Origin: Candidatus Cloacimonadales bacterium
GTDB taxonomy: Bacteria; Cloacimonadota; Cloacimonadia; Cloacimonadales; JAIOQZ01
DNA length: 64,000 nt
Assembly (NCBI GenBank): GCA_963674825.1
Contig: OY771587.1
Coordinates: 2,112,001-2,176,000 of the forward strand
Direction of reading: 5' to 3'
Positions 1 through 15,881 of the stretch are shown here, one piece after another. Position 1 is the first letter of the stretch. The number at the start of each line of letters is the position of its first letter. The notes under the pieces were generated by a model that worked only from the letters and a program-made list of their open reading frames with translations, was not told the origin of the DNA and made no database searches. The translations under genes and the position numbers were made by a program.

Positions 1-2229
1 CGGGATCAGCCTGTCGATGATCTTCAGGAGCAAGCGGACCGGTTATTCCTGCTTACGCTGGTCAGCTTCTACGACGAGGATGAACGCAAGGTTATAGAGT
101 ATTTCACGCAGGCGAAAGAAATTCTCTTTCGGATGGGTGAGAACGACCAAGCGCACATGATGAATGACATCATGGTGGGAATCCATACAGATGCCCAAGA
201 GTTTAAGGACTCGATCCCGTACGCTCTTGAAAGTATGCGGAACTACGAAAAGCTCAACGACGAATACCATCTTGCGCACATTTTAAACAACCTCGGGGTT
301 GCCTATTCGTGTTTGCATCGATTTTCGGAAGCCTTGCCGATTCTGAATCGTGGGCTTGCCCTGAATCTGAAAAACAACGAGCCGGATATCGTCAACTCAT
401 ACAACAATATTGCGAGTCTCTATCTTCGCATGAGGCTTTATAACAAGGCCCTCGCTACCTACAAGCTTGCCTTGGAAGCCTGCGATACATTTGGGCTTGA
501 TGGCATGCAGCACATGATATTGAACAACATTGCCAATATCAACACCGACCTGCAAAACTACCCGGAAGCGCTGGATTATTACCGGCAAGCGCTACAGAAT
601 TGTACCGACAACAGGAATAAGGCGATCACAATCAACAACATCGGGATGGTTTACTATTTCCAGGAGAAATACAGCGAAGCGATCGAGAACTTCGAGAAAT
701 CGCTCACGGTATGCCTGGACAACCGATTCTCCTATACCGAGGCGAAGAATCTCTATAACCTTGGTCACACGTACACAATGATTAACAGCTTTGATAAGGC
801 TCAGGCACTATTGCAGGAGGCCCGTCCGAAGATTGAGAAAACGGGCGATCTGCGGCTGCTTACAAATCTCGATGTCAGCCTGGCGGAGCTTTATATTGCA
901 CTCAAGCGCTATAAAGATGCGCTCGAGCTTCTGGAAGATATCTATCAACGTCCCCATGACGAGTACAAGGACATGGGGAATATCGAAAAAGCCTTTATCA
1001 TGCTTTTTCGCGAGACTGGTGATAGGGAGAAACTGGTTTATCATCAGAGCAAGTTGATCGAAAAGTATGAGCTCAAGCACGAGGTTGAGTTTGTTCAAAT
1101 GGTTGCGGAGATGCAAGTCGCGCTGGATTTGGAGCTGAAGGAGAAAGAAGCTGAGATGCAGCGCCAGAAGGCGTTGGAGCTTCAGCAGAAAAACGAGGAA
1201 ATTCTTGCGCAGAAACAGCAGATCGAGAAGACACTCGAAGAGTTGCGGAAGTCCGAGATCAGCTACGAATTCCTGCAGAAGGAATACCGCGAACAGCTCG
1301 GTTCCATGATCATCGGTGCAAGCGAACCGATGCAAAGGCTACTGTCACTCATCAGCATGGTGGCTGCCGCCAGCGATACTTCGGTTCTCATTACCGGTGA
1401 GACCGGTACGGGCAAGGAACTGGTGGCACGGGCGATTCACGAATTGAGTAACCGTAGCCATCGAACATTTTGTGCAGTCAATGCTTCGAGCATTCCTGAA
1501 ACCCTTTTCGAAAGCGAATTCTTCGGTTACCGAAAGAACGCCTTCACGGGTGCTGATCGGGATAAGGCCGGCTGGTTTGAAATCGCTAACGAAGGAACAC
1601 TGTTCCTGGATGAGGTGGGAACCTGGCGCTACGACATCCAATCCAAGTTTTTACGTGTACTGGAGAGCCGTAAGGTTATCCCCGTAGGTGGCGACCGGGA
1701 AATCCCCGTCGATTTTCGGCTAATCAGCGCAACAAATGATGATCTACAAAGCATGATCAAAGACAATAGCTTCCGGCCCGATCTCTACTACCGGCTGTCG
1801 TCTTTCATCATCCATATCCCACCGCTCCGTGAGCGCATCGAAGACATCCCACCGCTGCTCGAGTATTTTGTGAACTATTTCAACCAGCGTATGAACAAGA
1901 AGATTACTCGAATCGAGAAACAGATCGAAACAGCCCTTTGCCAGTACTCGTTTCCCGGCAATGTTCGCGAGCTGAAGAACATGGTTGAGCACGCAATGAT
2001 TATCTCCAATACCTCGACGCTACGGCTGTCGTCATTCTCAATTCCTCAGCAACAGGTTTTTGACGATATCGTCATTCCTTTGGATGAACACGAAAAGGCG
2101 ATGATTCTGAAGGCTCTGAAGCACACAGGATACCATCAGAGCAATGCCGCGGCGCTTTTGGGCCTGACACCGAAATCGATGGAGCGTCGCATGAAGAAGT
2201 ACAATATCGTCAATCCCAAAAAGCAATAA
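1..2229 (+). CDS. TPR-repeat sigma-54-dependent transcriptional activator (TPR-coiled coil-AAA+-Fis HTH), 5' end probably outside window
   Basis: Frame is open from base 1. TPR repeats (NNLGVAY, NNIASLY, NNIGMVY), Walker A GETGTGKE, ESEFFG, NAFTGA (GAFTGA variant), Walker B LFLDE, FRPDLYYRL, FPGNVREL, C-terminal HTH AAALLGL. Confidence 0.93.
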   Translation, partial: RDQPVDDLQEQADRLFLLTLVSFYDEDERKVIEYFTQAKEILFRMGENDQAHMMNDIMVGIHTDAQEFKDSIPYALESMRNYEKLNDEYHLAHILNNLGVAYSCLHRFSEALPILNRGLALNLKNNEPDIVNSYNNIASLYLRMRLYNKALATYKLALEACDTFGLDGMQHMILNNIANINTDLQNYPEALDYYRQALQNCTDNRNKAITINNIGMVYYFQEKYSEAIENFEKSLTVCLDNRFSYTEAKNLYNLGHTYTMINSFDKAQALLQEARPKIEKTGDLRLLTNLDVSLAELYIALKRYKDALELLEDIYQRPHDEYKDMGNIEKAFIMLFRETGDREKLVYHQSKLIEKYELKHEVEFVQMVAEMQVALDLELKEKEAEMQRQKALELQQKNEEILAQKQQIEKTLEELRKSEISYEFLQKEYREQLGSMIIGASEPMQRLLSLISMVAAASDTSVLITGETGTGKELVARAIHELSNRSHRTFCAVNASSIPETLFESEFFGYRKNAFTGADRDKAGWFEIANEGTLFLDEVGTWRYDIQSKFLRVLESRKVIPVGGDREIPVDFRLISATNDDLQSMIKDNSFRPDLYYRLSSFIIHIPPLRERIEDIPPLLEYFVNYFNQRMNKKITRIEKQIETALCQYSFPGNVRELKNMVEHAMIISNTSTLRLSSFSIPQQQVFDDIVIPLDEHEKAMILKALKHTGYHQSNAAALLGLTPKSMERRMKKYNIVNPKKQ

Positions 2230-2245
2230 TTGACGAAATCGTCAA
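2230..2245. promoter_or_regulatory. Putative upstream activator site (TTGACGA-AA-TCGTCAA; core GACG-W4-CGTC)
   Basis: Perfect 7-2-7 inverted repeat about 90 bp upstream of a sigma-54 promoter. The same core occurs three times in the mirror cassette. Confidence 0.7.
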
Positions 2246-2328
2246 AAATCGAACGTTTTACCGGCTCTGCTATCTGAAATTTTCTATATACAATCCGTAA
2301 TATGCTGCTATATCATATGATACAATAG

Positions 2329-2345
2329 TGGCATCGAACATGCAT
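2329..2345 (+). promoter_or_regulatory. Sigma-54 -24/-12 promoter TGGCATCGAACATGCAT
   Basis: GG(2330-2331)-N10-GC(2342-2343), followed by AAGGAG RBS and ATG 2370, directly downstream of a bEBP gene. Confidence 0.8.
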
Positions 2346-2369
2346 ATTCCTTCAATAAAGGAGTACTGC

Positions 2370-2708
2370 ATGCAAATATTACTGTTCAACTGCTTAGAAC
2401 GAATCAAGAGAGATCTGACTCGGCTTCTGCAATCACCGGAAGTGAGTGTTTATCTCTCCGTTTCAAAAAGCGATATCATCAGGATATTAAATTCGACGCA
2501 CATCGACATCGCCATGCTGTCCATACCGGATATCGATACAAACTTGCTCAACGTATTGCACGCATATAAGAACACCAAATTCTACTTCTTTGGTACTCCT
2601 TCATCCATGCTGACGCGCTACGATAACCTTCACGCCGTCGGTATGGATTACTCGGAGTCCGTTTTTCAACCTACCGTTATGCCTGAATGCGATAACTTGC
2701 TGCCATGA
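2370..2708 (+). CDS. Small degenerate receiver (REC)-like protein, 112 aa
   Basis: Start moved to ATG 2370 (AAGGAG RBS). MQILLFN...ILNSTHIDIAMLS resembles the CheY beta1-alpha2-beta3 pattern but lacks the acidic pocket and phosphoacceptor Asp. Confidence 0.6.
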   Translation: MQILLFNCLERIKRDLTRLLQSPEVSVYLSVSKSDIIRILNSTHIDIAMLSIPDIDTNLLNVLHAYKNTKFYFFGTPSSMLTRYDNLHAVGMDYSESVFQPTVMPECDNLLP

Positions 2709-2748
2709 AGATAAATAACACATTAATACCTATACTCGGGAGGAGTAA

Positions 2749-5700
2749 ATGAGATTTCACACAATGATTCTTGTATTGATCATGGTTTCCGTCGCTCAGC
2801 TTTCTGCCTTTGCAGGAGGTGATGGTTCATCCGAATCTCCTTATCAGGTCAGCAACATTGCTGAGCTTCAGGATGTGGAAAACAATCTGGACGCTCACTT
2901 TATTCAGACTGGAAATATTGATGCCAGCGCGACGACTACCTGGAATAACAACCATGGGTTCAATCCCATCGGCAGTAGCACGACACCATTCACCGGTAGC
3001 TACGATGGCCAGGGATACAGTATCAACGAATTGTATATCTATTCCACTGACGGAGATATCGGCCTGTTCGGCTCGTCAAACAGCGCAACGCTGTCGAACA
3101 TCGTTCTCACCGATTGCAGCGTTCGCGGTAACGACGGCACGGGCGGTTTGGTGGGCGACTCCCATAACGACACCATTACCAATTGCTGCGTGTCCGGATC
3201 TGTTGACGGAGATTATGCTAACGGTGGCCTGATTGGAAGGCTAACGGGTGGAGCCATCAGCAGTTGCTATAGTATTGCCAATGTGACCTGCATCAGTACC
3301 GGCGATCGAACAGGTGGCCTGGTGGGCAATGTCACTAGTGGCGCAAGCATCGATAACTGCTACGCTCATGGTACGGTTAGCGGAGATAATAAGGTTGGTG
3401 GCCTGGTGGGGCAAATCGATGCTTCCACAGTTACGAATTGCTACAGCACAGCCGTTGTGACGTGCGTGAACGAATTTGTCGGCGGCCTGATCAGTATATC
3501 CGAAAACGATGCCACAATCACGAATTCATACTGGAATACCGAGACCTCTGGGCAATCGACCAGCGCGGGTGGTGCAGGGAAGACCACTGACGAGATGAAA
3601 AACCTATACATGTACCACGGAGACGGATGGGATTTTGAATCGGAAACCCAGAACGGAACATCCAACACATGGGACATGGACATCAGCGGTTCGTCCAACG
3701 ACGGCTACCCCTGTCTGGCATGGGAAAACGACCAGATTTTCCTTCCGACTGCCTCGGGTACCGGTACCTCAACCGATCCTTATCAGATCGGCACCCTATA
3801 CGAACTTTTCTGGGTATCGGCGAATCAAGGTATCTGGTCCAGTGATTTCATGCAAACTGACGATATCGACGCGAACGACACCCGAAACTGGAATAACGGA
3901 ATGGGTTACAGGCCAATCGGCAAAAACAGTCCCAATCTTAACGGCGATTACGATGGGCAGGGTTTTACGATCGATGGTCTCTATATTAATCGTCCCTCTA
4001 TGGATTATGTAGGACTCTTTGGGAAATCAAGCGCAAATATCTGGATCAAGAATGTTCATATGACCAATATTGATATCACTGGGAACAATTATGTGGGGGG
4101 GATTACAGGCGAGTGCCATAATAACGCACATATCTACGATTGTTCTGTCCAGGGAGTTGTTAATGGCAATCGATATGTTGCTTGTATTGCTGGAAGGATG
4201 GAAGGCAGCAATATTACTCGATGCCGTTGTGAGGGAACCGTGAATGCATCAACCGTGAACAGTGGTGGAATCACAGGTTTCTTCTCAAGTAGTGCATCCG
4301 TTAATTATTGCGTTAGTTCAGCGACTATAAATGGAAGCGAAAATACCGGTGGTCTGGCTGGATTGGCTGCTACTGGCTCACATATCAATTATTCATATTG
4401 TACAGGACAAGTGACTGGCGGCAGTCAAGTCGGTGGATTGGTGGGCTATGCTTTCTCTACGACAATCCAATATTGTTATAGTTGTGGCCCCCTTTCGGGC
4501 GGCAGTCATGTCGGTGGATTGATTGGCGTTACTAGTGGCTCAAGTGTAAGCCATTCATTTTGGGATATGGAAGCATCAGGCAAAGCTACCAGTCCAGCAG
4601 GAACGGGACTCACAACCGCTGAGATGACATCGCTGCAGACTTTTCTCGATGATGGCTGGGATTTTGTTTCCGAAACCGCTAACGGTACGGCTGATCGCTG
4701 GGATATCGACTTGAAGGGAGATGTCAATAATGGATATCCCGTCCTTGCCTGGGAAGATGGGGACGTGTGCCTACTCGAAATCCCCTCTGGAAGCGGAACC
4801 GAAGCAGATCCCTATCAGATCGAAACCCTGATCCAGCTATGCTGGGTTTCATGTACACCTTCGACGTGGAGCAGCCATTTTGTGCAGATTGCCGATATCG
4901 ATGCCGCCGACACCGAAACATGGTTCGGGGGCCTTGGTTTCAAGCCCATCGGTAACGACGATACAGTATTCTCTGGATCATATGATGGACAATTTTATAC
5001 CATCGATGGGCTCTTCATCAATAGACCAGCCAGCGACGAGAATGGCCTGTTTGGCCAGGTCACCGGTGGGCAGATTTCCAATCTTCATGTGCTGAACTGC
5101 GACATCACAGGCAGGTATCGCACAGCCCCGATCGCCGCATCCTGCAACAATGTTACGATAACGAACTGCCATACATCCGGTACGATCAGCTCCTCAAATG
5201 GTGGTGGCGGTATCGCAGGACGAGTTTATACAACCGAAATAACAGGATGTTATTCCTCGGTCGGTGTATCCTCATATAATGAAGGTAGTTACTATGGAGG
5301 CATTACCGGAGGAGCTACGATCAACTCGACAATCGCAAATTGTTATGCAGTAGGCAACATCAGTTCAGGTAGCACGTGTGGCGGCCTGGTTGGATTGTTG
5401 GATAGTTCGACGGTTGAACACTGCTACAGTATCGGCTCCGTAACGGCTGACTCGGATGTCGGTGGACTTATCGGTGTTGCTTCTGGAACCTACTCAGTCG
5501 TTGGAGGTTTCTGGGATGTTACGACCTCAGGCCAGTCTTCCAGCGCAGGTGGTGAAGGTAAGACGACCTCATATATGAGATGCTCTATGACATACATCGA
5601 TGCCGGCTGGGACTTTGTGTCCGAGACAGCAAACGGTACGGACGACGTATGGGACATGGACCTCTTTAACAATTACAACGCTTCTTATCCGTTTCTTTCC

Positions 5701-8700
5701 TGGCAGAATGGCGACACTGAATTGTTATCTTTACCGTTGGGAAGTGGTACTGAAACGGATCCGTACCAGATCATGAACCTGATGCATCTTGTCTGGCTTT
5801 CTGCATCACCATCGGTTTGGGGCCAATACTTTCTGCAAACTGCCGATATCGACGCCAATGATACCCAGAACTGGAACAATGGAGCCGGTTTCTGGCCCAT
5901 CGGAAATAGCACGACGAATTTCACCGGTTACTACGATGGTGGCGAACACGTGATTGATGGACTTTACATTCATCCAGGAATAATGGATGTCGGTTTTTTC
6001 GGTGCAACGAATAACGCCACAATCGAGAACCTGAGCTTGACCAATGCCGATATTGATGCAAACGACGATGGAGGCGTACTTGCCGGTGAACTCAGATACT
6101 CGACCGCTACAAACTGTCACAGCAGCGGAACGGTAAGTGCCAATTACGCTGGGGGATTGATTGGATACCCTTATGACTCAATGATCACGCTCTGCTCCAG
6201 CTCGGCAAGTGCATTCGGTGATAGTGATGCCGGTGGATTGATTGGTTATTGTAGCTCTTCAGCGATCATCCAATCATTCGCAACGGGCAGTGTGGAAAGT
6301 GACGATGAAACTGGAGGCCTGGTTGGTGACTTGCTAACATCATCCATCAGCTTGTCTTTCGCAACGGGCCATGTGGAGGGAGATGACAACGTCGGTGGTC
6401 TGGCTGGTCATGTAGAGAACTCGACAATCAACCAGTCATACGCCACCGGTAACGTTACCGGTGGCCAGGATGCCGGAGGACTGGTTGGTTATCTGGAATC
6501 GGGCAATGCGTACGATTGTTTTAGCACAGGCGATACGGAAGGAGATTGGGCAGGTGGTCTGGTAAGTGATCTTGAAGGTACTGTCAATCGCTGCTATAGC
6601 ACGGGATATGTGTCCGGTAGTAATGATGAAGGAGGCCTGGTCGGGTATTTTCGAATTAGCGGCAACACGATCGCATCGTTTTGGGATGTAGAGACTTCCG
6701 GCCAGAGCACTAGTTACGGAGGTAAAGGGCTGACGTCTACAGAGATGAGGACTTCATTGGTATATATCTTGAGTGGCTGGGATTTTCCGGGTGAAACCGT
6801 AAATGGTTTTGATGATATCTGGGTGCTGGACAGCTCCATGAATGACGGTTACCCGACCTTTGCCTGGCAGGGCGGTACATCGGAATCGTTCGCTGCACCC
6901 GAAGGTGAGGGAACAACGGGTAATCCTTACTTGATCGACAGCTTGGACGATCTCATCTGGTTATCGGTAAACACGAATGCCTGGAACGGAAATATCCTGC
7001 AAATAGCCGACATCGACGCAAGTGAAACTCAGAGCTGGGTTGGAGGCAATGGCTTCATCCCGATCGGAAAAGAGGGGGACGCATTCCTCGGTAGCTATAA
7101 CGGTCAGGGATTTACGATCAGTGGACTCTACATCAATCGGAGCGATACGGAAAACGTAGGGCTTTGGGGCTATACCGACGGTGCCGAAATCACAGATGTC
7201 AACCTGACCAATGTAGTGATACGCGGCTCGGTGCAAGTCGGAGCGCTTGTTGGCACCACGACATATTCCACGGTTGTTTCCGGTTGTTCGAGCAGCGGAA
7301 GTGTGGAAGGCGCTAGTATCATCGGTGGACTCATTGGATCCTCTTACACCACTTCTATCATAGATTGCCATACTGACGGCAGTGTCGAGAGTCGTACAAC
7401 AAATGGCTGGACGGTAGGCGGCTTGGTCGGAGCGCATCGGCTTAATGGTACCATGGTTGGGTGTTATAGCGAGGCGACCGTTTCGGGAGGCTCTCAAGTT
7501 GGAGGATTAATCGGGAAGACCAACAACTCCAGCCTGTCAACGGTCGCGAAGTGCCATTGCACAGGCGACGTTACCGGAACGGGCGAATTTGCTGGTGGTC
7601 TGATCGGATATAGCGAGGACTATACATATCTTACGGATTCGTATTGCACCGGGAGTGTGACAGGCGTGAGCAACGTAGGTGGTTTGGCGGGTTCTGCTGC
7701 TTCCAGCGATACGATTACAAATTGCTACAGCAATGGTTATGTTACCGGTACTTCTTCTGTCGGTGGATTCCTGAGCGTTAACCATGGGGCGAGTATCAAT
7801 GCGTCATTCTGGGACACCGAGACTTCCGGTCAAAGCATCAGCGCTGGCGGAACTGGCAAGACAACTGCCGAAATGAAGACAATATATCCTTACATGAATG
7901 CTGGCTGGGATTTTGTTGGTGAGGTGCAAAACGGAACAGAAGATATCTGGGTCATCTTTGCTAACGAGTATCCGAGCTTCGCGATTGAATCCTCATCACC
8001 TGTCATCACGGGTGTAAACGACGTCCCGGGTGACCAGGGGCATCAGGTCGATATCGTATGGAACAAGGCATCTCATGATTGGATCTATAGCCCGAACAAC
8101 TTCTACACCGTGTGGCGTCTGGTGGTAAATACACGCTCCATTGGTTCGGAGGCAGTTATTATCGAAAATCCCGAGCAATTCGTTGAACCGAATCATGACC
8201 AAACACTGATTCTGCATCAACGGGATAACTACTGGACATGGCTGGCAACAATCCCGGCCATGATGCACAATCAATACTCCTTCATCTCGCCGACTCTGAT
8301 CGATTCCTGCGCTTCGCTTTCACCGGAGGAGTACCTGTCTACTTACATGGTTAACTACCATTTCGTAAGTGGTTACTTTGCCTCAACCGAAGCCTCTGGC
8401 TACTCGGTAGACAACATTGCGCCGTACGCTACGTCCGGAGTAACGCTTTCTTTCAATAACACGCGCACAGGGTCTGCAACGAGGTTGCCCAGTAGCACCC
8501 GAACAAATACAGCGACTCTCAGCTGGAACGAAGTCACCGAAGGCGGCCTCAACGGCAATAGCTACCCTGAAGAAAATGGTGTCTGGTACCGTGTCTATGC
8601 AGGTGAATCTCCTGATTTCTATTGTGATGACACATCTCTGCTCCAGACGACGCAGGCTACCAGTATCAATCTCAATCCCGCAGACGCGGAGAGAAGATTC

Positions 8701-8730
8701 TTCAAGATTGTGGTAAGCGATCAGCCGTAA
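2749..8730 (+). CDS. Large secreted GLUG-motif repeat protein, five tandem modules, 1993 aa
   Basis: GGAGGAG RBS and signal peptide. Five modules each begin GxGxxxxPYxI/V and contain QxxDIDA, PIG, Y(D/N)G, many GGLVG repeats and WDxETSGQ. The C-terminus is not of the FlgD type. Confidence 0.88.
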   Translation: MRFHTMILVLIMVSVAQLSAFAGGDGSSESPYQVSNIAELQDVENNLDAHFIQTGNIDASATTTWNNNHGFNPIGSSTTPFTGSYDGQGYSINELYIYSTDGDIGLFGSSNSATLSNIVLTDCSVRGNDGTGGLVGDSHNDTITNCCVSGSVDGDYANGGLIGRLTGGAISSCYSIANVTCISTGDRTGGLVGNVTSGASIDNCYAHGTVSGDNKVGGLVGQIDASTVTNCYSTAVVTCVNEFVGGLISISENDATITNSYWNTETSGQSTSAGGAGKTTDEMKNLYMYHGDGWDFESETQNGTSNTWDMDISGSSNDGYPCLAWENDQIFLPTASGTGTSTDPYQIGTLYELFWVSANQGIWSSDFMQTDDIDANDTRNWNNGMGYRPIGKNSPNLNGDYDGQGFTIDGLYINRPSMDYVGLFGKSSANIWIKNVHMTNIDITGNNYVGGITGECHNNAHIYDCSVQGVVNGNRYVACIAGRMEGSNITRCRCEGTVNASTVNSGGITGFFSSSASVNYCVSSATINGSENTGGLAGLAATGSHINYSYCTGQVTGGSQVGGLVGYAFSTTIQYCYSCGPLSGGSHVGGLIGVTSGSSVSHSFWDMEASGKATSPAGTGLTTAEMTSLQTFLDDGWDFVSETANGTADRWDIDLKGDVNNGYPVLAWEDGDVCLLEIPSGSGTEADPYQIETLIQLCWVSCTPSTWSSHFVQIADIDAADTETWFGGLGFKPIGNDDTVFSGSYDGQFYTIDGLFINRPASDENGLFGQVTGGQISNLHVLNCDITGRYRTAPIAASCNNVTITNCHTSGTISSSNGGGGIAGRVYTTEITGCYSSVGVSSYNEGSYYGGITGGATINSTIANCYAVGNISSGSTCGGLVGLLDSSTVEHCYSIGSVTADSDVGGLIGVASGTYSVVGGFWDVTTSGQSSSAGGEGKTTSYMRCSMTYIDAGWDFVSETANGTDDVWDMDLFNNYNASYPFLSWQNGDTELLSLPLGSGTETDPYQIMNLMHLVWLSASPSVWGQYFLQTADIDANDTQNWNNGAGFWPIGNSTTNFTGYYDGGEHVIDGLYIHPGIMDVGFFGATNNATIENLSLTNADIDANDDGGVLAGELRYSTATNCHSSGTVSANYAGGLIGYPYDSMITLCSSSASAFGDSDAGGLIGYCSSSAIIQSFATGSVESDDETGGLVGDLLTSSISLSFATGHVEGDDNVGGLAGHVENSTINQSYATGNVTGGQDAGGLVGYLESGNAYDCFSTGDTEGDWAGGLVSDLEGTVNRCYSTGYVSGSNDEGGLVGYFRISGNTIASFWDVETSGQSTSYGGKGLTSTEMRTSLVYILSGWDFPGETVNGFDDIWVLDSSMNDGYPTFAWQGGTSESFAAPEGEGTTGNPYLIDSLDDLIWLSVNTNAWNGNILQIADIDASETQSWVGGNGFIPIGKEGDAFLGSYNGQGFTISGLYINRSDTENVGLWGYTDGAEITDVNLTNVVIRGSVQVGALVGTTTYSTVVSGCSSSGSVEGASIIGGLIGSSYTTSIIDCHTDGSVESRTTNGWTVGGLVGAHRLNGTMVGCYSEATVSGGSQVGGLIGKTNNSSLSTVAKCHCTGDVTGTGEFAGGLIGYSEDYTYLTDSYCTGSVTGVSNVGGLAGSAASSDTITNCYSNGYVTGTSSVGGFLSVNHGASINASFWDTETSGQSISAGGTGKTTAEMKTIYPYMNAGWDFVGEVQNGTEDIWVIFANEYPSFAIESSSPVITGVNDVPGDQGHQVDIVWNKASHDWIYSPNNFYTVWRLVVNTRSIGSEAVIIENPEQFVEPNHDQTLILHQRDNYWTWLATIPAMMHNQYSFISPTLIDSCASLSPEEYLSTYMVNYHFVSGYFASTEASGYSVDNIAPYATSGVTLSFNNTRTGSATRLPSSTRTNTATLSWNEVTEGGLNGNSYPEENGVWYRVYAGESPDFYCDDTSLLQTTQATSINLNPADAERRFFKIVVSDQP

Positions 8731-8754
8731 AACAGGGACTCCTTACGTAAAGGA

Positions 8755-8781
8755 AAAGGGCAGCCGATCTGGCTGCCCTTT
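8755..8781. terminator. Bidirectional intrinsic terminator
   Basis: AAAGGGCAGCC-GATCT-GGCTGCCCTTT hairpin between convergent genes. Confidence 0.8.
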
Positions 8782-8800
8782 GTCGCATCGGAAGGTTGCG

Positions 8801-11800: not shown

Positions 11801-11995
11801 AAGACAGTACGGTTCGGAATGATAATATGCTGGATAGGGTGCGGCATAAGCGCTTGTCCCATCGCTGATATAGATCGTCCAACCTTCTGGAAGACTGGAT
11901 GACGCATCGAAATTTTGAGTGTAGGGCAGTGTCGCTGCTTGTGCCAGTAATACTGCGGAAATGCATAACATAAGGAAAGTGATGATGTTTTTCAT
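8801..11995 (-). CDS. Secreted multidomain adhesin-like protein: four cleaved-adhesin/MAM-like repeats, lamin-tail-like domain, LPVEL motif, FlgD/T9SS-like CTD
   Basis: Signal peptide. Repeats start LPYxQ/ExF and end LDDIxI. GLYISEV...GFIELVN (LTD-like), LPVELTSF, NFPNPFNPET...KSLLLK tail. Confidence 0.8.
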   Translation of the reverse strand: MKNIITFLMLCISAVLLAQAATLPYTQNFDASSSLPEGWTIYISDGTSAYAAPYPAYYHSEPYCLYFWNSNAPLENSHIIAAGPYINSSDFSNLTLSFWALGYSEYDMPSVRLGFLSTADDPTSFTEFDSYTLSGNMSYYSYDLNWVRTDYQIAYEFVPNDGTQGMALDDIYIGESGGVVGAELPYFQDFDDSEYMPDDWQSYVSDESNEYIYVYSYYSHSDPNCIYYWKSDEPQAGDYMFVGGPFLDNEQLEGQVLTFWASCYTNSTYPSIGVGYFDSLEDPESYYEIDSFELTEDMQKFEIEFYPVRSIFQLAFRFNSTDAEQGMALDDVYIGEPGGDIQTVTLPYAENFNEAWYNHLPSPWEALVSSSSEYTEVNIDESYGVDNSPCMYMYNSNDTSEELLLIAVGPAISDEDFNGTNSLYFESYSSEYSESFPSLKVGYMTDPSDPDMFITLDTFQLTSGYMNYEVNLLNVLRGASYIAFKMCPTEQYQSILIDNIEITDAVAEPQDDLPCEEMFDSCGFPATGWSEEIVNYGSGPGYDPEWSAVIQNTYPNCEPYEGDSMGIVNGLSRAGGQGRYYTPSLDLSTYAALRLELWVMHSADMSGSPYDQEGIQIQYSTDENNWYDIGAFIPRADASAPAPYWKKHVIDLTDLADSPSMYIGMLSTSMFSGYAILVDAFQIVASTPTAGGLYISEVCDNLTGQADNTGFIELVNNTSYSLDLSGYRIHTGTADAFGGNFVADSPEVSYDIPDGTFIQKSGGILVIGCGASDIDFRNAWGISGDLNYLPGTSAMPITNDCAYEIYDPNARAGEIDASPVVYAGDDMVQETSNIWTASTPANATPGELGNEQTLPVELTSFCASVVDDSQVMISWVTASESGILGYQLLRGTTNSESDAIYLTSSIIPGQNQTTENRYYYQDEDISDESELFYWVVSLELSGASQMYGPVSVVLEDGGDEPEAPEVIVVTQLNGNFPNPFNPETNICFDLAGEAGEMVPVTLEIFNVRGQKVKTLVNGLYPAGKNHKVMWNGTDENEKPVSSGIFFYRLKTQTRTCTGKSLLLK

Positions 11996-12008
11996 GGTAC
12001 ATACTCCT

Positions 12009-12422
12009 TTATGTGGTTATTACTTGGATGACATTGTAATTATCGGGTTGTTGTTTCCCTGAGATCCCCCGCAAGGTGCTCATGGCTCTATTCTCGGAGA
12101 TACACTTCAGAACGCGAATCAGGTCATCGACAGTTGGGAATCCTTTAAACCTGTAGATTAGGTTTGATGTGTCAGATATTTTGTCTCCGCTGTTTGTAAG
12201 GATGATACGGGTCTTGACCGGATTGGTGTGAATATGATGGATAAGCGAATCATTCTCTTCATGCCTGTCGTCCAATACCACGAAATCCATGCGATTCCTT
12301 TGGATCAGCCGAAGAGCATCCTGCCCTGTAACGGCGAAAAACAGGCTTGTATCGAGACTTTGCTGGATTTTCTGCAAGTCTTCGGATTGCAGATATTCCT
12401 GATTAACCAGTAAAATATTCAT
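12009..12422 (-). CDS. Small atypical receiver (REC)-like protein, 137 aa
   Basis: MNILLVNQE...AVTGQDALRLIQRNRMDFVVLDD...RIILT follows the receiver pattern. The beta3 Asp is kept but the beta1 acidic pair is N/Q. Confidence 0.7.
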   Translation of the reverse strand: MNILLVNQEYLQSEDLQKIQQSLDTSLFFAVTGQDALRLIQRNRMDFVVLDDRHEENDSLIHHIHTNPVKTRIILTNSGDKISDTSNLIYRFKGFPTVDDLIRVLKCISENRAMSTLRGISGKQQPDNYNVIQVITT

Positions 12423-12449
12423 CCATACTCCATTGTTTTCACATTACTA

Positions 12450-12466
12450 ATGCATAATGAATGCCA
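12450..12466 (-). promoter_or_regulatory. Sigma-54 -24/-12 promoter TGGCATTCATTATGCAT
   Basis: GG-N10-GC on the minus strand about 30 nt upstream of the REC-like gene; same TGGCAT-N5-ATGCAT form as 2329-2345. Confidence 0.8.
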
Positions 12467-12543
12467 ATTGATATAATACATTGCAGGATGGTCAATTACG
12501 GCAATACATGGATGGGGTGAAATCATTTACATACGATGCAATA

Positions 12544-12557
12544 AGACGATATCGTCT
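12544..12557. promoter_or_regulatory. Putative upstream activator site AGACG-ATAT-CGTCT
   Basis: Perfect 14-bp palindrome about 85 bp upstream of the -24 element. Confidence 0.7.
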
Positions 12558-12633
12558 GGCTATCATGGGGTGAGAAAGAAAAGATTATTGTAACTGCATG
12601 ATAAGTAATTGGTTGTGATCGATCGGGAGCGCC

Positions 12634-12666
12634 ATAGACGTTTTCGTCTATATAGACGATTTCGTC
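12634..12666. promoter_or_regulatory. Tandem pair of putative upstream activator sites (ATAGACG-TTTT-CGTCTAT and GACG-ATTT-CGTC)
   Basis: Two GACG-W4-CGTC palindromes 18 bp apart just after the bEBP stop. The distal one read on the minus strand (GACGAAATCGTC) is identical to 2232-2243. Confidence 0.72.
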
Positions 12667-12676
12667 CTGTGATGAA

Positions 12677-14935
12677 TTAAAACTCTTCTCGCAGGTTGAA
12701 TTTATTGATGCGGCGTTCCACAGCTTTTTGCGATACACCCAGCAGTTTGGCTGCCTTGGTCTGGTTTCCGCTTGTTCTTTTCAACGCTCGCAGGAGCATG
12801 GTTTTCTCTATTGTTTCCAGCGGGATGATATTCTCGTCATCAGTACAGGGAAGCTCCATGTTATTGATGGGGATGGAAAAATGCTGCAATTGCAGAGTAG
12901 GACTGTCACAGATGATGAGAGCTCGTTCTACCATATTACGTAGTTCCCGAATATTTCCCGGGAAATCATAGGATTCAATCGTGGTGAAGATCTGCGGATC
13001 GATGCGGCGTACGGATTTATTCAGTCTTGGGGCATAGGTATTTACAAAATGCTCGATTAATGGCTGGATATCCTCTTTACGTTCGCGAAGCGGTGGTATC
13101 TGGATCACAAACGCTGCCAGGCGATGGTAGAGGTCTTCCCGAAACTGTTTCTGTGAGACAAGTTCGAGCAGATCCATGTTGGTGGCGGAAATTACTCGCA
13201 CATTGACAGGTATTTCGTGCCGAGCTCCAACCCTGACAATGTTCCGTTCTTCCAGCACCCGCAACAGCTTGATCTGATGATCCAGCGGCATGTTACCGAT
13301 CTCGTCCAGGAAAAGGGTTCCTCCGTTTGCCACTTCGAACCATCCGGCTTTCTGGGAAAGGGCCCCAGTGAATGCCCCCTTCTCATAGCCAAAAAACTCG
13401 CTTTCGAATAGCGTCGATGAGATGGCGGAGGAATTGATGGCGTGGAAATATTTCTGTTTGCGCTGACTCATCTCATGAATTCCGCGCGCGACAAGCTCCT
13501 TGCCGGTACCGCTTTCGCCCATGATCAGTACAGAAGTCGCGTCTGCACGGGCAACTTTTGACATAAGCTGGATGATATTGCGTACGGTTGTGCTGTTGCC
13601 AACGATACGGGTCTGGAAGCTGCTTTTGATCTCATCGGCGAGGAAATCGAGGTTTCGCTCGCTACGACGAAGCTCCTTCAGCGTTTTATCGAGATCTTCT
13701 TTCTGTTGTAGGATAAGCCGGTTCTTCTCTTCGAGTTCATGGTTTTTTTCTTTGAAAAGCTCCGCTTCGCGTTCTCGCTGTTCCAGCTCAAATTTTGTTC
13801 GCATTTCGGCCAACATCTGCTGATTGTCTTCTTTGGCGATCTCGATGTATTTCTTGAGATGCTTCTCCTTGTATGCGAATGCTTTTTCAAAATCCTTCTT
13901 TACATTGTATATTTTTGCGAAAAGGTCGTAAAGCTCCACCCGTATCTGGTTGTCGTCATCAAGATGCTTGCATGCTTCCAGACAAAGCGCTTCCGCTTCA
14001 TCGTATTGCTCTGTCATGAATGCTACATATGCCAGGCGAATCTGTGAACGACTCATCAAAACATCAGCGCCACGATCTTTTCGCAGTTGGAGGGCTTGGG
14101 TGTGGTATTTACGTGCGTTTGGGTAGTCAGCAAGCTGATAATAGACATTTCCAATGCCGTTAAGAGTGTTTGAAATGCGGATCGAGTCTTTCTGATCGCG
14201 TTTGATCTCCAGCGACTGGTGTAAGTATTCAAGTGCTTGTTCATATTGCTTCATGCAATGACAGGTGATACCGACGATATTCAGTGCATTCGCATAATAG
14301 GTAATTTGTCCGGAAGCCTTGAAGATTTCCAGTGCTTGCAAGCCATATTCAAGACCTCGTTCGTATTCGCCGAGATTGTTATATATGCGTGTGATATTAG
14401 TCAGCGATAATCCAACTTTCTCCGTCTGGTTGAGCTTTCTGCGTATTTCAAGAGATTTTTGTGTATAATCAAGCGCAAGGGAATTGCGATTCATGAAGAG
14501 GTAACACTCTCCCATATTGTTCATGATGCTTGCCTGATTATCGATGTCATTCATTTGCACTGCGCAATCGAGCGCTCTATTGAAGCAGATGAGAGCCTGG
14601 TCGTACAAATTTCTGGCAAAGTAGTTACCTGCCTTCTCAAAGTGAACCAGCATCAAGCGGCGAGGATTACCGGTCTGATCAAAATACTCTTTTGCCTTAT
14701 CGAGCCACTGGAGTGCTTCTTCGCCTTTCTCAAGCGCTGATTCCAGTTTGTACTTAACGATGTATAGCAGTCCGTGATCTTCAGGAAATTCCGATCGTTC
14801 AACAATCTCGCGCATTTTTTCGTATTCATGTCTTCCCGTTTCAAGATCGCATCTATGAATTGCATTAAACGATTGATTCATGTGAAGTTTATATTCGTCG
14901 AAAAGTGTTCTGGTTTGCGAATTTTCTGCTTTCAT
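12677..14935 (-). CDS. TPR-repeat sigma-54-dependent transcriptional activator (TPR-coiled coil-AAA+-Fis HTH)
   Basis: TPRs, GESGTGKE, ESEFFG, GAFTGA, LFLDEIG, FREDLYHRL, FPGNIREL, GNQTKAAKLLGV. No signal peptide or TM helix seen. Confidence 0.95.
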   Translation of the reverse strand: MKAENSQTRTLFDEYKLHMNQSFNAIHRCDLETGRHEYEKMREIVERSEFPEDHGLLYIVKYKLESALEKGEEALQWLDKAKEYFDQTGNPRRLMLVHFEKAGNYFARNLYDQALICFNRALDCAVQMNDIDNQASIMNNMGECYLFMNRNSLALDYTQKSLEIRRKLNQTEKVGLSLTNITRIYNNLGEYERGLEYGLQALEIFKASGQITYYANALNIVGITCHCMKQYEQALEYLHQSLEIKRDQKDSIRISNTLNGIGNVYYQLADYPNARKYHTQALQLRKDRGADVLMSRSQIRLAYVAFMTEQYDEAEALCLEACKHLDDDNQIRVELYDLFAKIYNVKKDFEKAFAYKEKHLKKYIEIAKEDNQQMLAEMRTKFELEQREREAELFKEKNHELEEKNRLILQQKEDLDKTLKELRRSERNLDFLADEIKSSFQTRIVGNSTTVRNIIQLMSKVARADATSVLIMGESGTGKELVARGIHEMSQRKQKYFHAINSSAISSTLFESEFFGYEKGAFTGALSQKAGWFEVANGGTLFLDEIGNMPLDHQIKLLRVLEERNIVRVGARHEIPVNVRVISATNMDLLELVSQKQFREDLYHRLAAFVIQIPPLRERKEDIQPLIEHFVNTYAPRLNKSVRRIDPQIFTTIESYDFPGNIRELRNMVERALIICDSPTLQLQHFSIPINNMELPCTDDENIIPLETIEKTMLLRALKRTSGNQTKAAKLLGVSQKAVERRINKFNLREEF

Positions 14936-15081: not shown

Positions 15082-15714
15082 CTATTTATTTGTGCGATAC
15101 TGATCGGCTTCATCTCTTGTAACAATTTTATCGCCATCCTGGTCTTTTTCCAGATGTGATTTCATCATATGCTCGGTCAGTTCTTTTTCGTCCACGTTAC
15201 CGTCTTTGTTTGTGTCGAGTGCTGCGTGGCGTTTCTGGGTAAATGTAAGATACTCTGCCTTATCGATAAATCCATCTTTGTTCAGATCGAGTACCATGAA
15301 TTGGTAGGATGGGTTGTCCGGACATTCGAGCCCTGTAGTATCAATTTCTTCCCAGCCGGGACCTACGAGTGCGGTTTTCATTTCTTCCAGGGTAATGAGT
15401 TTGTCGTTATCGGCATCCCAGTGTTTAAACATGTACGCGATTCTCGCGAGAACTTCGGATTCGTCCTGGACACCGTCGCCGTTAATGTCACGATGATCGT
15501 AAAGACGCATCATGTTGGCTTTGTGTTCTTCGCGTGAGATCAGGCCATCATTGTCGGTATCCTGAAAATCCTGCATCGAAGTGGTAACGAGTTCTTTTTG
15601 TGCTGTCTCAGCTTCTTGTTGGGCAGCTTCCTGCTTGGGCGCTTCCTGCTTTGGTGCACATGCTGCAAAGATTAGTAATGATAGTAAAACAAACGCAGTT
15701 ATTAAACGATTCAT
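15082..15714 (-). CDS. EF-hand calcium-binding lipoprotein
   Basis: Start moved to MNRLITAF (GGAGG RBS). Lipobox FAAC and six DxD/NxDGxI/V...E loops. Confidence 0.82.
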   Translation of the reverse strand: MNRLITAFVLLSLLIFAACAPKQEAPKQEAAQQEAETAQKELVTTSMQDFQDTDNDGLISREEHKANMMRLYDHRDINGDGVQDESEVLARIAYMFKHWDADNDKLITLEEMKTALVGPGWEEIDTTGLECPDNPSYQFMVLDLNKDGFIDKAEYLTFTQKRHAALDTNKDGNVDEKELTEHMMKSHLEKDQDGDKIVTRDEADQYRTNK

Positions 15715-15881
15715 TTGATCCTCCATAGTTCGTTTCCCATATAATGAAAAAGAACTGGAGCTTGTCAAGTTCGCCATGTTGCGTTGATGAATTTCGTTCA
15801 TTTGGTACTGCGGTTTGTTCTCAATTGACACAAAAAGCGAACCCTTTTCGGATCCGCTTTATTTTTGAAATACACGCACTT

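Follow-up and report, generated by a model that had tools for sequence, protein, structure and literature searches.

Sigma-54 activator cassettes with TPR input and a receiver-like gene: probable private switches for predicted surface proteins in Cloacimonadota

Results

Gene and feature content of the two cassettes

The window, a 64,000-nt stretch of the complete 3.89-Mb chromosome of a Cloacimonadales bacterium, contains two convergent cassettes, here termed module G and module B, with the following features:

1..2229, + strand: activator 1 (module G), with TPR array, long helix, sigma-54 AAA+ domain and HTH_8; truncated by the window edge
2061..2074, unstranded: module G distal palindrome TGACGATATCGTCA, inside the coding region of activator 1, near its 3' end
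2230..2245, unstranded: module G proximal palindrome TTGACGAAATCGTCAA, directly after the activator 1 stop codon; predicted enhancer (UAS)
2329..2344, + strand: predicted module G -24/-12 promoter TGGCATCGAACATGCA, TGGCAT-N5-ATGCA, 25 nt before an SD-preceded ATG
2370..2708, + strand: pseudo-receiver gene 1, 112 aa; profile match (E 2.0e-25) and alignment with paralogues
2749..8730, + strand: cargo 1, 1993 aa, with signal-peptide-like N-terminus, Glug repeats and a Peptidase_M26_N-like stretch
8755..8781, unstranded: hairpin shared by the convergent cargo genes, 11-bp G+C-rich stem and 5-nt loop
8801..11995, - strand: cargo 2, 1064 aa, with signal-peptide-like N-terminus, choice-of-anchor J, LTD and a near-threshold T9SS-type C-terminal domain
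12009..12422, - strand: pseudo-receiver gene 2, 137 aa; AF2 model, Foldseek matches, orthologues in loci L034 and L035
12451..12466, - strand: predicted module B -24/-12 promoter TGGCATTCATTATGCA, TGGCAT-N5-ATGCA, 28 nt before an SD-preceded ATG; conserved in orthologous loci
12545..12556, unstranded: module B proximal palindrome AGACGATATCGTCT (core), ~135 nt before the ATG of the small gene
12637..12666, unstranded: two module B distal palindromes GACGTTTTCGTC and GACGATTTCGTC (+ strand letters), right behind the activator 2 stop codon
12677..14935, - strand: activator 2 (module B), 752 aa, with TPRs, long helix, AAA+ domain and HTH_8

The initial annotation had proposed two convergent cassettes with the same order of parts, and each part was located where it had been placed, including the two small genes, of which only gene 1 differs in its start, by one base. 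Its further claims of a -24/-12 promoter and of GACG-W4-CGTC palindromes in each cassette, of TPR-AAA+-HTH activators at both ends, of unrelated cargo under conserved regulatory parts and of one bidirectional terminator at the meeting point are borne out by the results below.

Activators and their TPR input

The complete gene of activator 1 starts 135 nt upstream of the window and encodes 787 aa. Both activators matched the Pfam domains TPR_12, Sigma54_activat (E 4.7e-62 for activator 1 and 1.4e-65 for activator 2), AAA_lid_14 and HTH_8, and they share 41% identity across 665 aa. Activator 2 comprises ~8.5 TPRs (residues 12-345), a single 88-residue helix (349-436) and GAFTGA in its AAA+ domain, and alignment with it placed a NAFTGA loop, the Walker A motif GETGTGKE and LFLDE in activator 1; ATPase motifs and GAFTGA-type loops are intact in both. 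All NCBIfam equivalog models remained below their own cut-offs against the activator, the PrsR model TIGR02915 with 325 bits (cut-off 502.6).

The structure model of the TPR input (pLDDT 91) retrieved LGN/Pins, Rap and NprR in Foldseek. The N-terminal 440 residues of the activator match Bacteroidota TPR_12-plus-long-helix proteins along most of that length (E down to 1.4e-93), and since this input was found joined to histidine kinase, GGDEF, cyclase, GerE and SpoIIE outputs in the Bacteroidota sample, it can be regarded as a signalling input module. A sigma-54 domain was present in none of the ten best Bacteroidota matches, and the fusion of TPR_12/long helix with an AAA+ activator was encountered here only in Cloacimonadota. 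The LGN/Rap-like superhelix is likely a sensor for a peptide or protein in the cytoplasm.

Small receiver-like proteins

The product of pseudo-receiver gene 1 gave no match in a Pfam scan; Response_reg reached E 0.006 with one of the small proteins of the window (17.2 bits, cut-off 30.2) and did not match the other. The AF2 model of pseudo-receiver 2 (pLDDT 86) displays a CheY-like fold without helix 4, and its best Foldseek matches were receiver domains, including those of NtrC1, LuxO, HupR, NtrX and FleR, with the pseudo-receivers of CikA and KaiA also among the matches. The designation as degenerate REC thus holds for the fold, but not at the level of Pfam. In a set of 1.84 billion proteins the family is represented by 93 clusters, and almost every cluster representative is 80-160 aa long. 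A phospho-acceptor Asp was retained in 12 of 67 relatives, whereas S26, S32, D35 and R38 are conserved in these 67 sequences and specific to the family (signature S-x5-S-x2-D-x2-R); paralogues are 16-27% identical, with variable C-terminal halves. By model and alignment, the small protein is a CheY-like fold whose catalytic positions are not conserved.

Cargo proteins and shared hairpin

The two cargo proteins are unrelated (BLASTP E = 3.2). Their signal-peptide-like N-termini and adhesin-type domains suggest surface proteins; the word is used in this predictive sense because no C-terminal sorting signal was recognised in five of the six cargo proteins of the modules described below, cargo 1 among them, and only the 1064-aa protein has a T9SS-like C-terminus. 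A PEP-CTERM domain was absent from the matches in the cargo Pfam scans. The hairpin between the cargo genes can form on either strand (-29.1 and -28.3 kcal/mol; z -3.6 and -4.0) and is likely a bidirectional terminator, which was missed by a simple terminator scan because its U-run is short, most of all on the + strand.

Palindromes and promoters

GACG-W4-CGTC occurs six times in the window versus 0.13 expected (none of 100 shuffles attained six) and only 19 times across the genome; five of the six window matches, at 2062, 2232, 12545, 12637 and 12655, belong to the cassettes. The module G proximal palindrome lies ~139 nt upstream of the ATG of the small gene, a distance of 125-153 nt being found in most modules, and its 14-mer core recurs in module D and in a unit termed O1. 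One distal palindrome of module G sits in coding sequence, which was counted against the main reading.

In the orthologous loci L034 and L035 (73% and 65% activator identity) the cassette order is unchanged, and within the intergenic DNA only three AGACG-N4-CGTCT sites, promoter, SD and start codon are conserved between diverged flanks. A recognition helix of the form K-[SAG]-x-E-R-R goes with GACG-N4-CGTC in 11 of 11 modules, and R-K/R-x-x-E-R-K/R with palindromes of the TGGTCA-N4-TGACCA or GGACA-N4-TGTCC types. Because they are kept in otherwise diverged intergenic DNA and co-vary with the HTH helix, the palindromes are marked here as predicted cognate enhancers of the activators. The strict promoter pattern matched 44 times genome-wide, as opposed to 25-30 times in three mononucleotide shuffles; owing to this modest enrichment, the case for the predicted promoters before both small genes rests on position and conservation and not on motif count.

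Copies in the genome and distribution in the phylum

The genome possesses rpoN and 23 sigma-54 activators, ten of them TPR-type. Six of these ten are followed by palindromes, -24/-12 promoter, receiver-like gene (~100-137 aa) and signal-peptide protein (1064-3160 aa), so that the full cassette is present in at least six copies, two of which lie in the window. The cargo proteins of the six modules carry LamG, Ig-like, FG-GAP or Glug domains, the small genes were confirmed by profile and the promoters read TGGCAY-N5-NTGCA. The other four TPR activators depart from this pattern: H, I and J have no small gene, and in module F a doubtful small gene is followed by a BrkB-type membrane protein. Two further units of small gene and cargo, the orphans (one being O1), have no adjoining activator. 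Gene order is kept between modules although the activators are only 34-47% identical, and it is kept across ten families.

Strong matches to the small protein (E <= 1.3e-9) were patchily distributed over 33 of 232 Cloacimonadota genomes in ten families, and genomes with a single match were common among the 33. Contexts were examined in 20 of the 32 other genomes with a strong match. A TPR activator lies directly upstream of the small gene in 12 of the 20, and an activator gene adjoins it in 18, with none in the examined stretch at L148 and L158. TGG-N10-GC was found within 100 nt upstream of the small gene in 18 contexts as well (absent at L148 and L161), where simple arithmetic gives a chance expectation of ~1.7. 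A large ORF (425 to >3000 aa, N-terminus signal-peptide-like by eye) directly follows the small gene in 15 of the 20 contexts, and the same holds in this genome for each of the six modules and the two orphan units. At L160, L162 and L161 the small gene stands beside a REC-type activator and no cargo follows, and at L159 and L036 pairs of TPR-kinase and REC-activator precede units of small gene and cargo; for both reasons the small gene appears to be linked to activators and not to cargo.

Among the checks suggested with the initial annotation, presence of rpoN, non-random neighbourhoods of homologous activators, and adjoining activators and GG-N10-GC across the phylum were thus answered positively. 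Its pointer to Cloacimonadota also proved correct. The term duplicated applied there understates a multi-copy, phylum-wide module family. No earlier description of this module was found in a literature search.

Discussion

Each cassette likely serves to turn on a single predicted surface protein of its own. We consider it rather probable that the cassettes act as dedicated one-component sigma-54 switches, leading from activator via palindromes and -24/-12 promoter to an operon of pseudo-receiver and giant protein. The TPR-AAA+-HTH activator would bind the palindromes immediately behind its stop codon and fire the promoter ~100 bp further on, whereby pseudo-receiver gene and giant signal-peptide protein gene would be transcribed as one operon. 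Coiled-coil linkers control AAA+ ring assembly in NtrC1/DctD-type activators, and the TPR signal is likely relayed by analogy, through the conserved 88-residue helix, which would govern ring assembly here. Since firing of the switch would be required for synthesis of the pseudo-receiver, this protein likely feeds back on its own activator; we lean towards negative feedback, as exerted by PspA on PspF. Modules with a common palindrome core (G, D and orphan O1: TGACGAAATCGTCA) would be expected to cross-talk, and module B (AGACG-N4-CGTCT) to stay insulated from them.

The same transcriptional switch could be combined with another role of the pseudo-receiver, which might instead assist the giant protein translated right behind it, acting in the cytoplasm as a holdase or as a factor for targeting or export coupling. 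The large ORF directly 3' of the small gene in most contexts, all six modules and both orphans, and gaps of just 13-40 nt between genes inside the window cassettes, would suit such a service. However, the cargo is unrelated, yet the face of S26, S32, D35 and R38 recurs throughout the family and therefore indicates a conserved partner; moreover, the small gene accompanies REC-type activators where cargo is absent, and we know of no precedent for a CheY-fold chaperone, so that this role is held to be unlikely. It is quite unlikely, too, that pseudo-receivers act between modules, inhibiting or priming the activators of others so that a cell would display one or a few giant proteins at a time, a logic similar to that of UpxZ/UpxY across Bacteroides capsule loci. 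Six to nine paralogous units in a single genome, low identity and variable C-terminal halves of the small proteins, as for specificity determinants, the constant first position of the pseudo-receiver in the operon and enhancer cores common to orphan units and linked modules all speak for it, but divergence is equally expected from cognate pairing, and in the many genomes with a single small gene a role between modules would serve no purpose.

Were the palindromes no more than hairpins that terminate or stabilise the activator transcripts, with an order inherited by duplication and no regulatory link, this would explain why they begin a few bases from the activator stop codons and why two were called weak hairpins by the terminator scan. 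Their stems of just 5-6 bp without U-run and their repetition (2-3 copies over <=200 nt, one within coding sequence) do not favour it, nor does the palindrome before O1, which has no upstream activator gene but a separate stronger hairpin. Together with co-variation between palindrome and HTH helix in 11 of 11 cases and an order constant despite the activator divergence and across families, this makes the hairpin explanation very improbable.

Comparison with known systems

The proposed switch resembles NtrC1/DctD-type enhancer-binding proteins in its GAFTGA-type AAA+ sigma-54 interaction domain, C-terminal Fis-type HTH, palindromic sites ~100 bp upstream of a -24/-12 promoter and long helix between input and ATPase. 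It differs in the input, an 8.5-repeat TPR superhelix instead of a phosphorylatable receiver, GAF, PAS or V4R domain, and in a target operon encoding a separate receiver-like protein. Control of activators in trans by a partner protein is known from PspF/PspA, NifA/NifL and HrpS/HrpV. As in PspF/PspA, the activator has no receiver domain and the first gene of the sigma-54 operon encodes a small possible feedback protein; here, however, the candidate partner is CheY-like and not a PspA coiled coil, and the activator has its own sensor domain.

Bacteroidota TPR_12-plus-long-helix proteins (histidine kinases, GGDEF proteins, cyclases) have the input module in common with the activators, as the match over most of the N-terminal 440 residues implies, and the Cloacimonadota TPR-kinase and REC-activator pairs at L159 and L036 recall the TPR histidine kinases among them; the sigma-54 domain, missing from the ten best matches, sets the activators apart. 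According to the account of the PEP-CTERM/EpsH system PrsK-PrsR-PrsT, many genes of sorted exported proteins are preceded by a sigma-54 promoter and, upstream of it, an activator motif, one kinase/response-regulator pair serves many cargo genes and the TPRs reside in a separate lipoprotein (Haft et al., 2006, PMC1569441). Compared with that account, predicted sigma-54 promoters for putatively exported cargo and a TPR protein are shared, whereas in the present modules every cargo is paired with a palindrome and a fused TPR activator not shared with other cargo.

Rap/RRNPP proteins (RapH-Spo0F, RapF-ComA, NprR) resemble the activator in the size and shape of their TPR superhelix (Foldseek E 4.5e-10 to 2e-8), and the Spo0F of the solved Rap TPR-receiver complex 3q15 is among the Foldseek matches of the small protein. 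Sequence-level membership, on the other hand, is lacking, the output is a sigma-54 ATPase, the phylum is different and no pheromone gene as in those systems was seen. With the CikA PsR and the KaiA N-terminal domain the small protein shares a CheY-like fold with lost phospho-acceptor chemistry, but it stands alone with ~100-140 aa, has no helix 4 in the model, and is distinguished by its own serine-aspartate-arginine signature and its genomic tie to sigma-54 activators.

Two convergent cassettes with a shared order

The initial annotation had described a duplicated cassette, in which a TPR sigma-54 activator is followed by palindromes, a -24/-12 promoter, a small receiver-like gene and a giant secreted protein (the cargo). 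This layout was borne out by ORF listing and Pfam in both modules of the window, termed G (forward strand) and B (reverse strand).

Features of modules G and B in the window
1-2229, forward: activator 1 (module G); TPR_12, Sigma54_activat (E 4.7e-62), AAA_lid_14 and C-terminal HTH_8 (Pfam)
2329, forward: TGGCAT-N5-ATGCA of module G, 25 nt before an ATG with Shine-Dalgarno sequence
2370-2708, forward: small gene 1, 112 aa, 40 nt before cargo 1
2749-8730, forward: cargo 1, 1993 aa; Glug, M26_N-like
8755-8781, both strands: G+C-rich 11-bp hairpin between the cargo genes; z-scores -3.6 and -4.0
11995-8801, reverse: cargo 2, 1064 aa; choice-of-anchor J, LTD, T9SS-like tail
12009-12422, reverse: small gene 2, 137 aa, 13 nt before cargo 2
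12466, reverse: TGGCAT-N5-ATGCA of module B, 28 nt before an ATG with Shine-Dalgarno sequence
12677-14935, reverse: activator 2 (module B); TPR_12, Sigma54_activat (E 1.4e-65), AAA_lid_14 and C-terminal HTH_8 (Pfam)

Activator 1 is truncated by the window edge (genomic start 135 nt upstream, full length 787 aa), and the two activators are paralogues with 41% identity over 665 aa. Pairwise comparison of cargo 1 with cargo 2 revealed no similarity (E = 3.2). The hairpin between the cargo genes was missed by a simple terminator scan owing to its short U-run. Directly upstream of activator 2 lies a gene for a 249-aa EF-hand protein (15082-15831, reverse strand) with a strong terminator of its own (15063-15036); EF-hand proteins are uncommon among bacteria. 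A third exact promoter motif, TGGCAT-N5-TTGCA at 56724-56739 on the forward strand, is situated within the end of a 1256-aa ORF (53023-56793) and 69 nt before a 443-aa ORF preceded by a Shine-Dalgarno sequence (from about 56809), and may represent another sigma-54 promoter.

Activators and their TPR input domain

Sigma-54 activators are textbook regulators, and both window proteins carry their hallmarks: the AAA+ domain scores 209 and 220.5 bits (activators 1 and 2; Pfam cut-off 20.2), and HTH_8 is found with E-values of 8e-12 and 2.5e-10, with predicted cognate sites upstream. The motifs which we take to be the GAFTGA loop (GAFTGA in activator 2, NAFTGA in activator 1) and Walker A/B (GE(S/T)GTGKE and LFLDE) are present, and their columns are invariant across 23 aligned TPR activators. 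The genome (single contig, 3.89 Mb, 99.6% complete) encodes one copy of rpoN (Sigma54_DBD, E 7.3e-50), a gene whose presence the initial annotation had left to be confirmed; together with the predicted -24/-12 promoters at the targets this agrees with the activators being enhancer-binding proteins, which would activate the sigma-54 holoenzyme with ATP. Besides one weak AAA match, 23 proteins bearing the sigma-54 interaction domain were counted in this genome, ten of which are of the TPR type (707-831 aa, N-terminal TPR region).

Residues 1-437 of activator 2 were modelled with a pLDDT of 91 as 17 helices, comprising about 8.5 TPRs over residues 12-345 and a single helix of 88 residues (349-436) leading into the AAA+ domain; this helix bears the best-conserved motif outside the ATPase among the 23 aligned TPR activators. 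Foldseek matched the input model to LGN/Pins, Rap proteins and NprR, all of them superhelices binding peptides or proteins. The unit of TPR_12 plus helix was recovered in 122 of 151 genomes of a Bacteroidota sample (E <= 1e-20), and the ten best matches were fused to a histidine kinase (4), GGDEF (2), adenylate/guanylate cyclase (1), GerE (1), SpoIIE (1) or an unrecognised partner (1), none of these ten to a sigma-54 domain. Since it is abundant and joined to varied outputs there, the unit is best read as a general signalling input. Its fusion in Cloacimonadota looks like a short-circuit of a pair of TPR kinase and REC-type activator, which is still found at two loci of other Cloacimonadota genomes (L159, L036). 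A homologue search with the TPR region returned mainly generic TPR/CHAT proteins, and only three of the 120 listed contained Sigma54_activat, namely the query and two orthologues of it; swamped in this way, the search gives no gauge of the spread of TPR activators.

The small protein, a predicted pseudo-receiver

No Pfam family was reached by the seven small proteins of the genome used for a profile: the best score was Response_reg with 17.2 bits (cut-off 30.2) for the 137-aa protein, below the gathering threshold of REC (PF00072), and neither the 112-aa window protein nor the five from other modules gave a match. At E <= 0.001 the profile recovered, out of 1.84 billion, 93 representatives of clusters, which with few exceptions measure 80-160 aa. 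AlphaFold2, run with 67 aligned sequences, predicted (pLDDT 86) the order b1-a1-b2-a2-b3-a3-b4-b5-a5, according to which the protein is modelled as a (beta-alpha)5, CheY-like fold without helix 4. The best PDB matches of this model in Foldseek were receiver domains (TM 0.5-0.64), among them those of the sigma-54 activators NtrC1, LuxO, HupR, NtrX and FleR, as well as the CikA and KaiA pseudo-receivers and Spo0F complexed with the TPR protein RapH.

At the positions which we take over from canonical CheY, Asp occupies the phospho-acceptor column in only 12 of 67 sequences, and the acidic pair after strand 1, Thr/Ser after strand 4 and Lys after strand 5 are variable. The family has a conserved signature of its own on strand 2 and helix 2 (S26, S32, D35, R38). 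Because the phosphorylation positions are unconserved while this signature is conserved, the protein is regarded, as far as the model goes, as a pseudo-receiver, a receiver-fold adaptor rather than a phosphorylatable REC domain. Among canonical receivers, those of the NtrC family are its closest relatives. Against PDB sequences the profile gave weak receiver matches only (ArcA 0.002, NtrC1 0.05); a designed repeat protein ranking first was rejected as spurious, as it consisted of five sub-threshold stretches. Nearest in the ESM Atlas are clusters of hypothetical proteins, or of 'response regulatory domain' proteins with a score of 0.94; they are a lead only and go no further than the fold result. 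If this reading holds, the family is new, being without a Pfam or NCBIfam model.

Modules across the genome

The region downstream of each of the ten TPR activators (A-J) was read and small genes were verified by profile. Six (A, B, C, D, E, G) display the same order: activator stop codon, two to three palindromes, a promoter of the type TGGCAY-N5-NTGCA, a 96-137-aa gene beginning 'MNILL...' and a protein of 1064-3160 aa. Each of the six cargos starts with a signal-peptide-like N-terminus, and the domains recognised are LamG, Ig-like, FG-GAP, Big_5 or Glug; in the promoters of A and C the -12 element deviates, with GG-N10-GC kept or nearly so. The other four activators (F, H, I, J) are off-pattern. 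F is followed only by a doubtful small ORF (95 aa, included in alignment A1 with 17% identity and omitted from A2) and then a BrkB-type membrane protein, and no small gene was present in the regions read downstream of H, I and J.

In addition, two orphan units of small gene and cargo were detected without a neighbouring activator gene (own-genome coordinates, C1).

Orphan units
O1, about C1:1245655-1249420, reverse: small gene at about 1,249,300; cargo of 1102 aa
O2, about C1:1841560-1850728, forward: small gene at about 1,841,630; cargo of 2929 aa

O1 has a GG-N10-GC promoter and bears the 17-mer CGTGACGAAATCGTCAT, identical to the site of module D, the 14-mer core of which is also identical to the proximal site of module G; the activator of D or G probably acts on O1 in trans.

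Some neighbourhoods are worth recording in their own right. Module E, consisting of activator, small gene and a cargo of 3160 aa, is flanked by two runs of the 28-nt repeat GTATTCCCCACGCATGTGGGGGTGAACC (L029:15-625 and L029:13853-13940, within C1:1824015-1837940); one run has 11 copies spaced 61 nt apart, the other has 2. ORFs upstream resemble cas genes as judged by eye. The module seems to lie inside or beside a CRISPR array. Activator H, which has no pseudo-receiver (L031, C1:2953415-2961173), adjoins the T9SS sortase PorU (593 bits, above cut-off) and a Por_Secre_tail protein; via this locus a sigma-54 link to the T9SS secretion machinery itself is possible. The place of the pseudo-receiver is taken, at H as at I, by a different small gene of 67-84 aa (L031:2858-3091, forward; L032:129-383, reverse), for which no Pfam match was obtained and which share a '...SIGFTV...' stretch.

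Palindromes and promoters

GACG-W4-CGTC occurs six times in the 64-kb window, where 0.13 copies were expected and none of 100 shuffles reached six; five of the six lie within the two cassettes, and the whole 3.89-Mb genome holds only 19. Three lines of evidence, namely intergenic footprint, HTH co-variation and geometry, agree that the palindromes are predicted enhancers cognate to the adjacent activator. In two further Cloacimonadales genomes, whose activators are 73% and 65% identical to that of module B, the orthologous modules have an unchanged gene order, and their conserved intergenic blocks are exactly three AGACG-N4-CGTCT sites, the -24/-12 promoter, the Shine-Dalgarno sequence and the start codon. 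Modules with the recognition helix K-[SAG]-x-E-R-R possess GACG-N4-CGTC in 11 of 11 cases (A, B, D, G, L034, L035, and L145, L149, L151, L155 and L163 from other families), and R-[KR]-x-x-E-R-[KR] helices go with TGGTCA-N4-TGACCA (E, L154, L156), GGACA-N4-TGTCC (L152) or related sites (L153). The site of module C is GTCC-N6-GGAC, and no repeated palindrome could be picked out in F, L146 and L157. In most modules the proximal palindrome is located 125-153 nt before the ATG of the small gene, about 100 bp from the promoter. It might be argued that the palindromes are terminator hairpins of the activator genes, which they follow; this fits poorly, as the stems measure only 5-6 bp without a U-run, several copies occur per module, one of them within coding sequence, and one precedes orphan O1, where no activator gene terminates.

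Genome-wide, the strict promoter pattern was found 44 times versus 25-30 in three shuffles, a modest enrichment. A sigma-70 promoter scan, with 22 sites versus 23.1 expected, was uninformative. Strict -24/-12 matches are also placed before three genes for FtsX/MacB-like permeases of about 780 aa (N-termini assessed by eye) and before large signal-peptide proteins of 3238 and 981 aa (example sites C1:1735185, 1752392, 2415249, 3341849 and 1879618). From these predicted sites, the sigma-54 regulon of the genome looks centred on the envelope.

Distribution within and outside Cloacimonadota

At E <= 0.001 the small-protein profile matched 97 of 232 Cloacimonadota genomes, the weak matches being true receiver domains of NtrC-type regulators of about 450 aa; strong matches (E <= 1.3e-9) were confined to 33 of 232 genomes from 10 families, a minority of the phylum's genomes. 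Contexts were examined in 20 of the 32 foreign genomes, with annotation by own HMMs, Pfam and six-frame search. Instead of the random neighbourhoods that the initial annotation had named as speaking against a module, a TPR activator lies directly upstream of the small gene in 12 of the 20.

Contexts of the small gene in 20 foreign genomes
TPR activator directly upstream, same strand, 12/20: L145, L146, L147, L149, L151, L152, L153, L154, L155, L156, L157, L163
Activator upstream, truncated at contig end, 1/20: L144
Divergent TPR activator, 1/20: L150
TPR histidine kinase and REC-type activator upstream, 1/20: L159
Beside a REC-type activator, no cargo after, 3/20: L160, L162, L161
No activator within the stretch examined, 2/20: L148, L158 (contig of L158 only 4.7 kb)

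L036, outside these 20, is arranged as L159. In 15 of 20 the next ORF is 425 to more than 2600 aa long and its start resembles a signal peptide (judged by eye). The 100 nt upstream of the small gene contain TGG-N10-GC in 18 of 20, against about 1.7 expected by rough arithmetic with equal base frequencies. In L160, L162 and L161 the pseudo-receiver gene stands behind its own -24/-12 promoter, without a cargo gene, and is flanked by a PAS histidine kinase and a REC-type sigma-54 activator (L162 is from another order of the class), which suggests an autoregulated unit of kinase, pseudo-receiver and activator.

Outside the phylum, the profile matched none of five single FCB-type genomes (E <= 1e-5). 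Two overlapping samples, centred on genomes G236 and G232, gave the same two marginal matches (2/167 and 2/121 genomes, E <= 1e-7), one of which is inside a 925-aa frame, and 1 of 301 genomes in a Bacteroidota sample matched, inside a 393-aa frame. Stand-alone relatives of the pseudo-receiver outside Cloacimonadota were thus not found in the samples searched, which as samples are no proof of absence.

Possible export of the cargos

The last 120 aa of cargo 2 reach FlgD_ig (28.5 bits) and CHU_C (27.1; cut-off 27) and stay below cut-off for Por_Secre_tail (23.1 versus 27) and TIGR04183 (21.9 versus 23). No recognised C-terminal sorting tail was detected in the other five of the six cargos (cargo 1 and those of A, C, D and E). 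The genome possesses SprA, PorU and at least 150 matches to T9SS-type C-terminal domains; T9SS is reportedly mentioned for Cloacimonadota in one published study (PMC8542988). Between about 25341 and 51913 the window contains a dense run of genes with terminal Por_Secre_tail domains, matched at nine places (25341, 32031, 34182, 34485, 36795, 38111, 39708, 41890 and 51674), and judging by its gene content the window belongs to a secretome-rich region.

Proposed mechanism

The initial annotation had interpreted the module as a one-component, ligand-gated switch for each surface protein, with the pseudo-receiver as feedback modulator. Its observation stood and could be extended; its interpretation was upheld in part, namely for the dedicated sigma-54 switch for each predicted surface protein, which is well supported by comparative sequence evidence. 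The activator would sit on its own palindromes, and its TPR superhelix, according to the model, would bind a cytoplasmic peptide or protein signal. In NtrC1/DctD a coiled-coil linker controls assembly of the AAA+ ring, and by analogy the long helix may relay the TPR signal so that ring assembly is permitted; the ring would then remodel the sigma-54 holoenzyme at the -24/-12 promoter, from which pseudo-receiver and cargo genes are presumably transcribed together.

The role of the pseudo-receiver can be read in several ways. Feedback on the activator is the likeliest, because its gene is tied to activators and not to cargo type and its product would be made only upon firing of the switch; by analogy with PspA/PspF we lean towards negative feedback. 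Its position before the cargo gene would also allow a part in cargo handling, an alternative of low probability. A network across modules, in which the pseudo-receiver of each operon silences or licenses the activators of other modules and therefore only one or few giant proteins are displayed per cell, appears improbable; if true, it would constitute a phosphorylation-free, sigma-54-based surface-variation circuit of orthogonal activator/enhancer pairs.

Feedback on the activator within a dedicated switch is thus preferred, and if this reading holds, the repertoire of enhancer-binding proteins would be widened by an input domain and an accessory protein family, both of them new. It would further explain one-by-one control of giant adhesin-like proteins in a phylum that is uncultured, associated with digesters and equipped with a very large secretome. 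The natural activator/enhancer pairs would have a specificity that can be read from sequence, K-S-x-E-R-R helices being predicted to pair with GACG-N4-CGTC and R-K-x-x-E-R-K helices with TGGTCA-N4-TGACCA, and would be candidates for orthogonal sigma-54 parts.

Comparison with known systems

Sigma-54 is said to control mainly the cell exterior, as Francke and colleagues reportedly proposed in 2011, and the modules, with their predicted surface proteins, fit this proposal. A term search of that work (Francke et al., 2011; PMC3162934) returned no mention of TPR. Neither TPR-input sigma-54 activators nor a linked pseudo-receiver nor sigma-54 control in Cloacimonadota turned up in full-text literature searches outside subscription journals. 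The nearest system in print is PrsK/PrsR/PrsT of PEP-CTERM (PMC1569441). The window activators score only 325 and 284 bits with the PrsR model TIGR02915 (cut-off 502.6), and Pfam scans of the cargos revealed no PEP-CTERM family. As regards RRNPP/Rap regulators, the TPR superhelix resembles Rap and NprR in fold, but the domain architecture differs.
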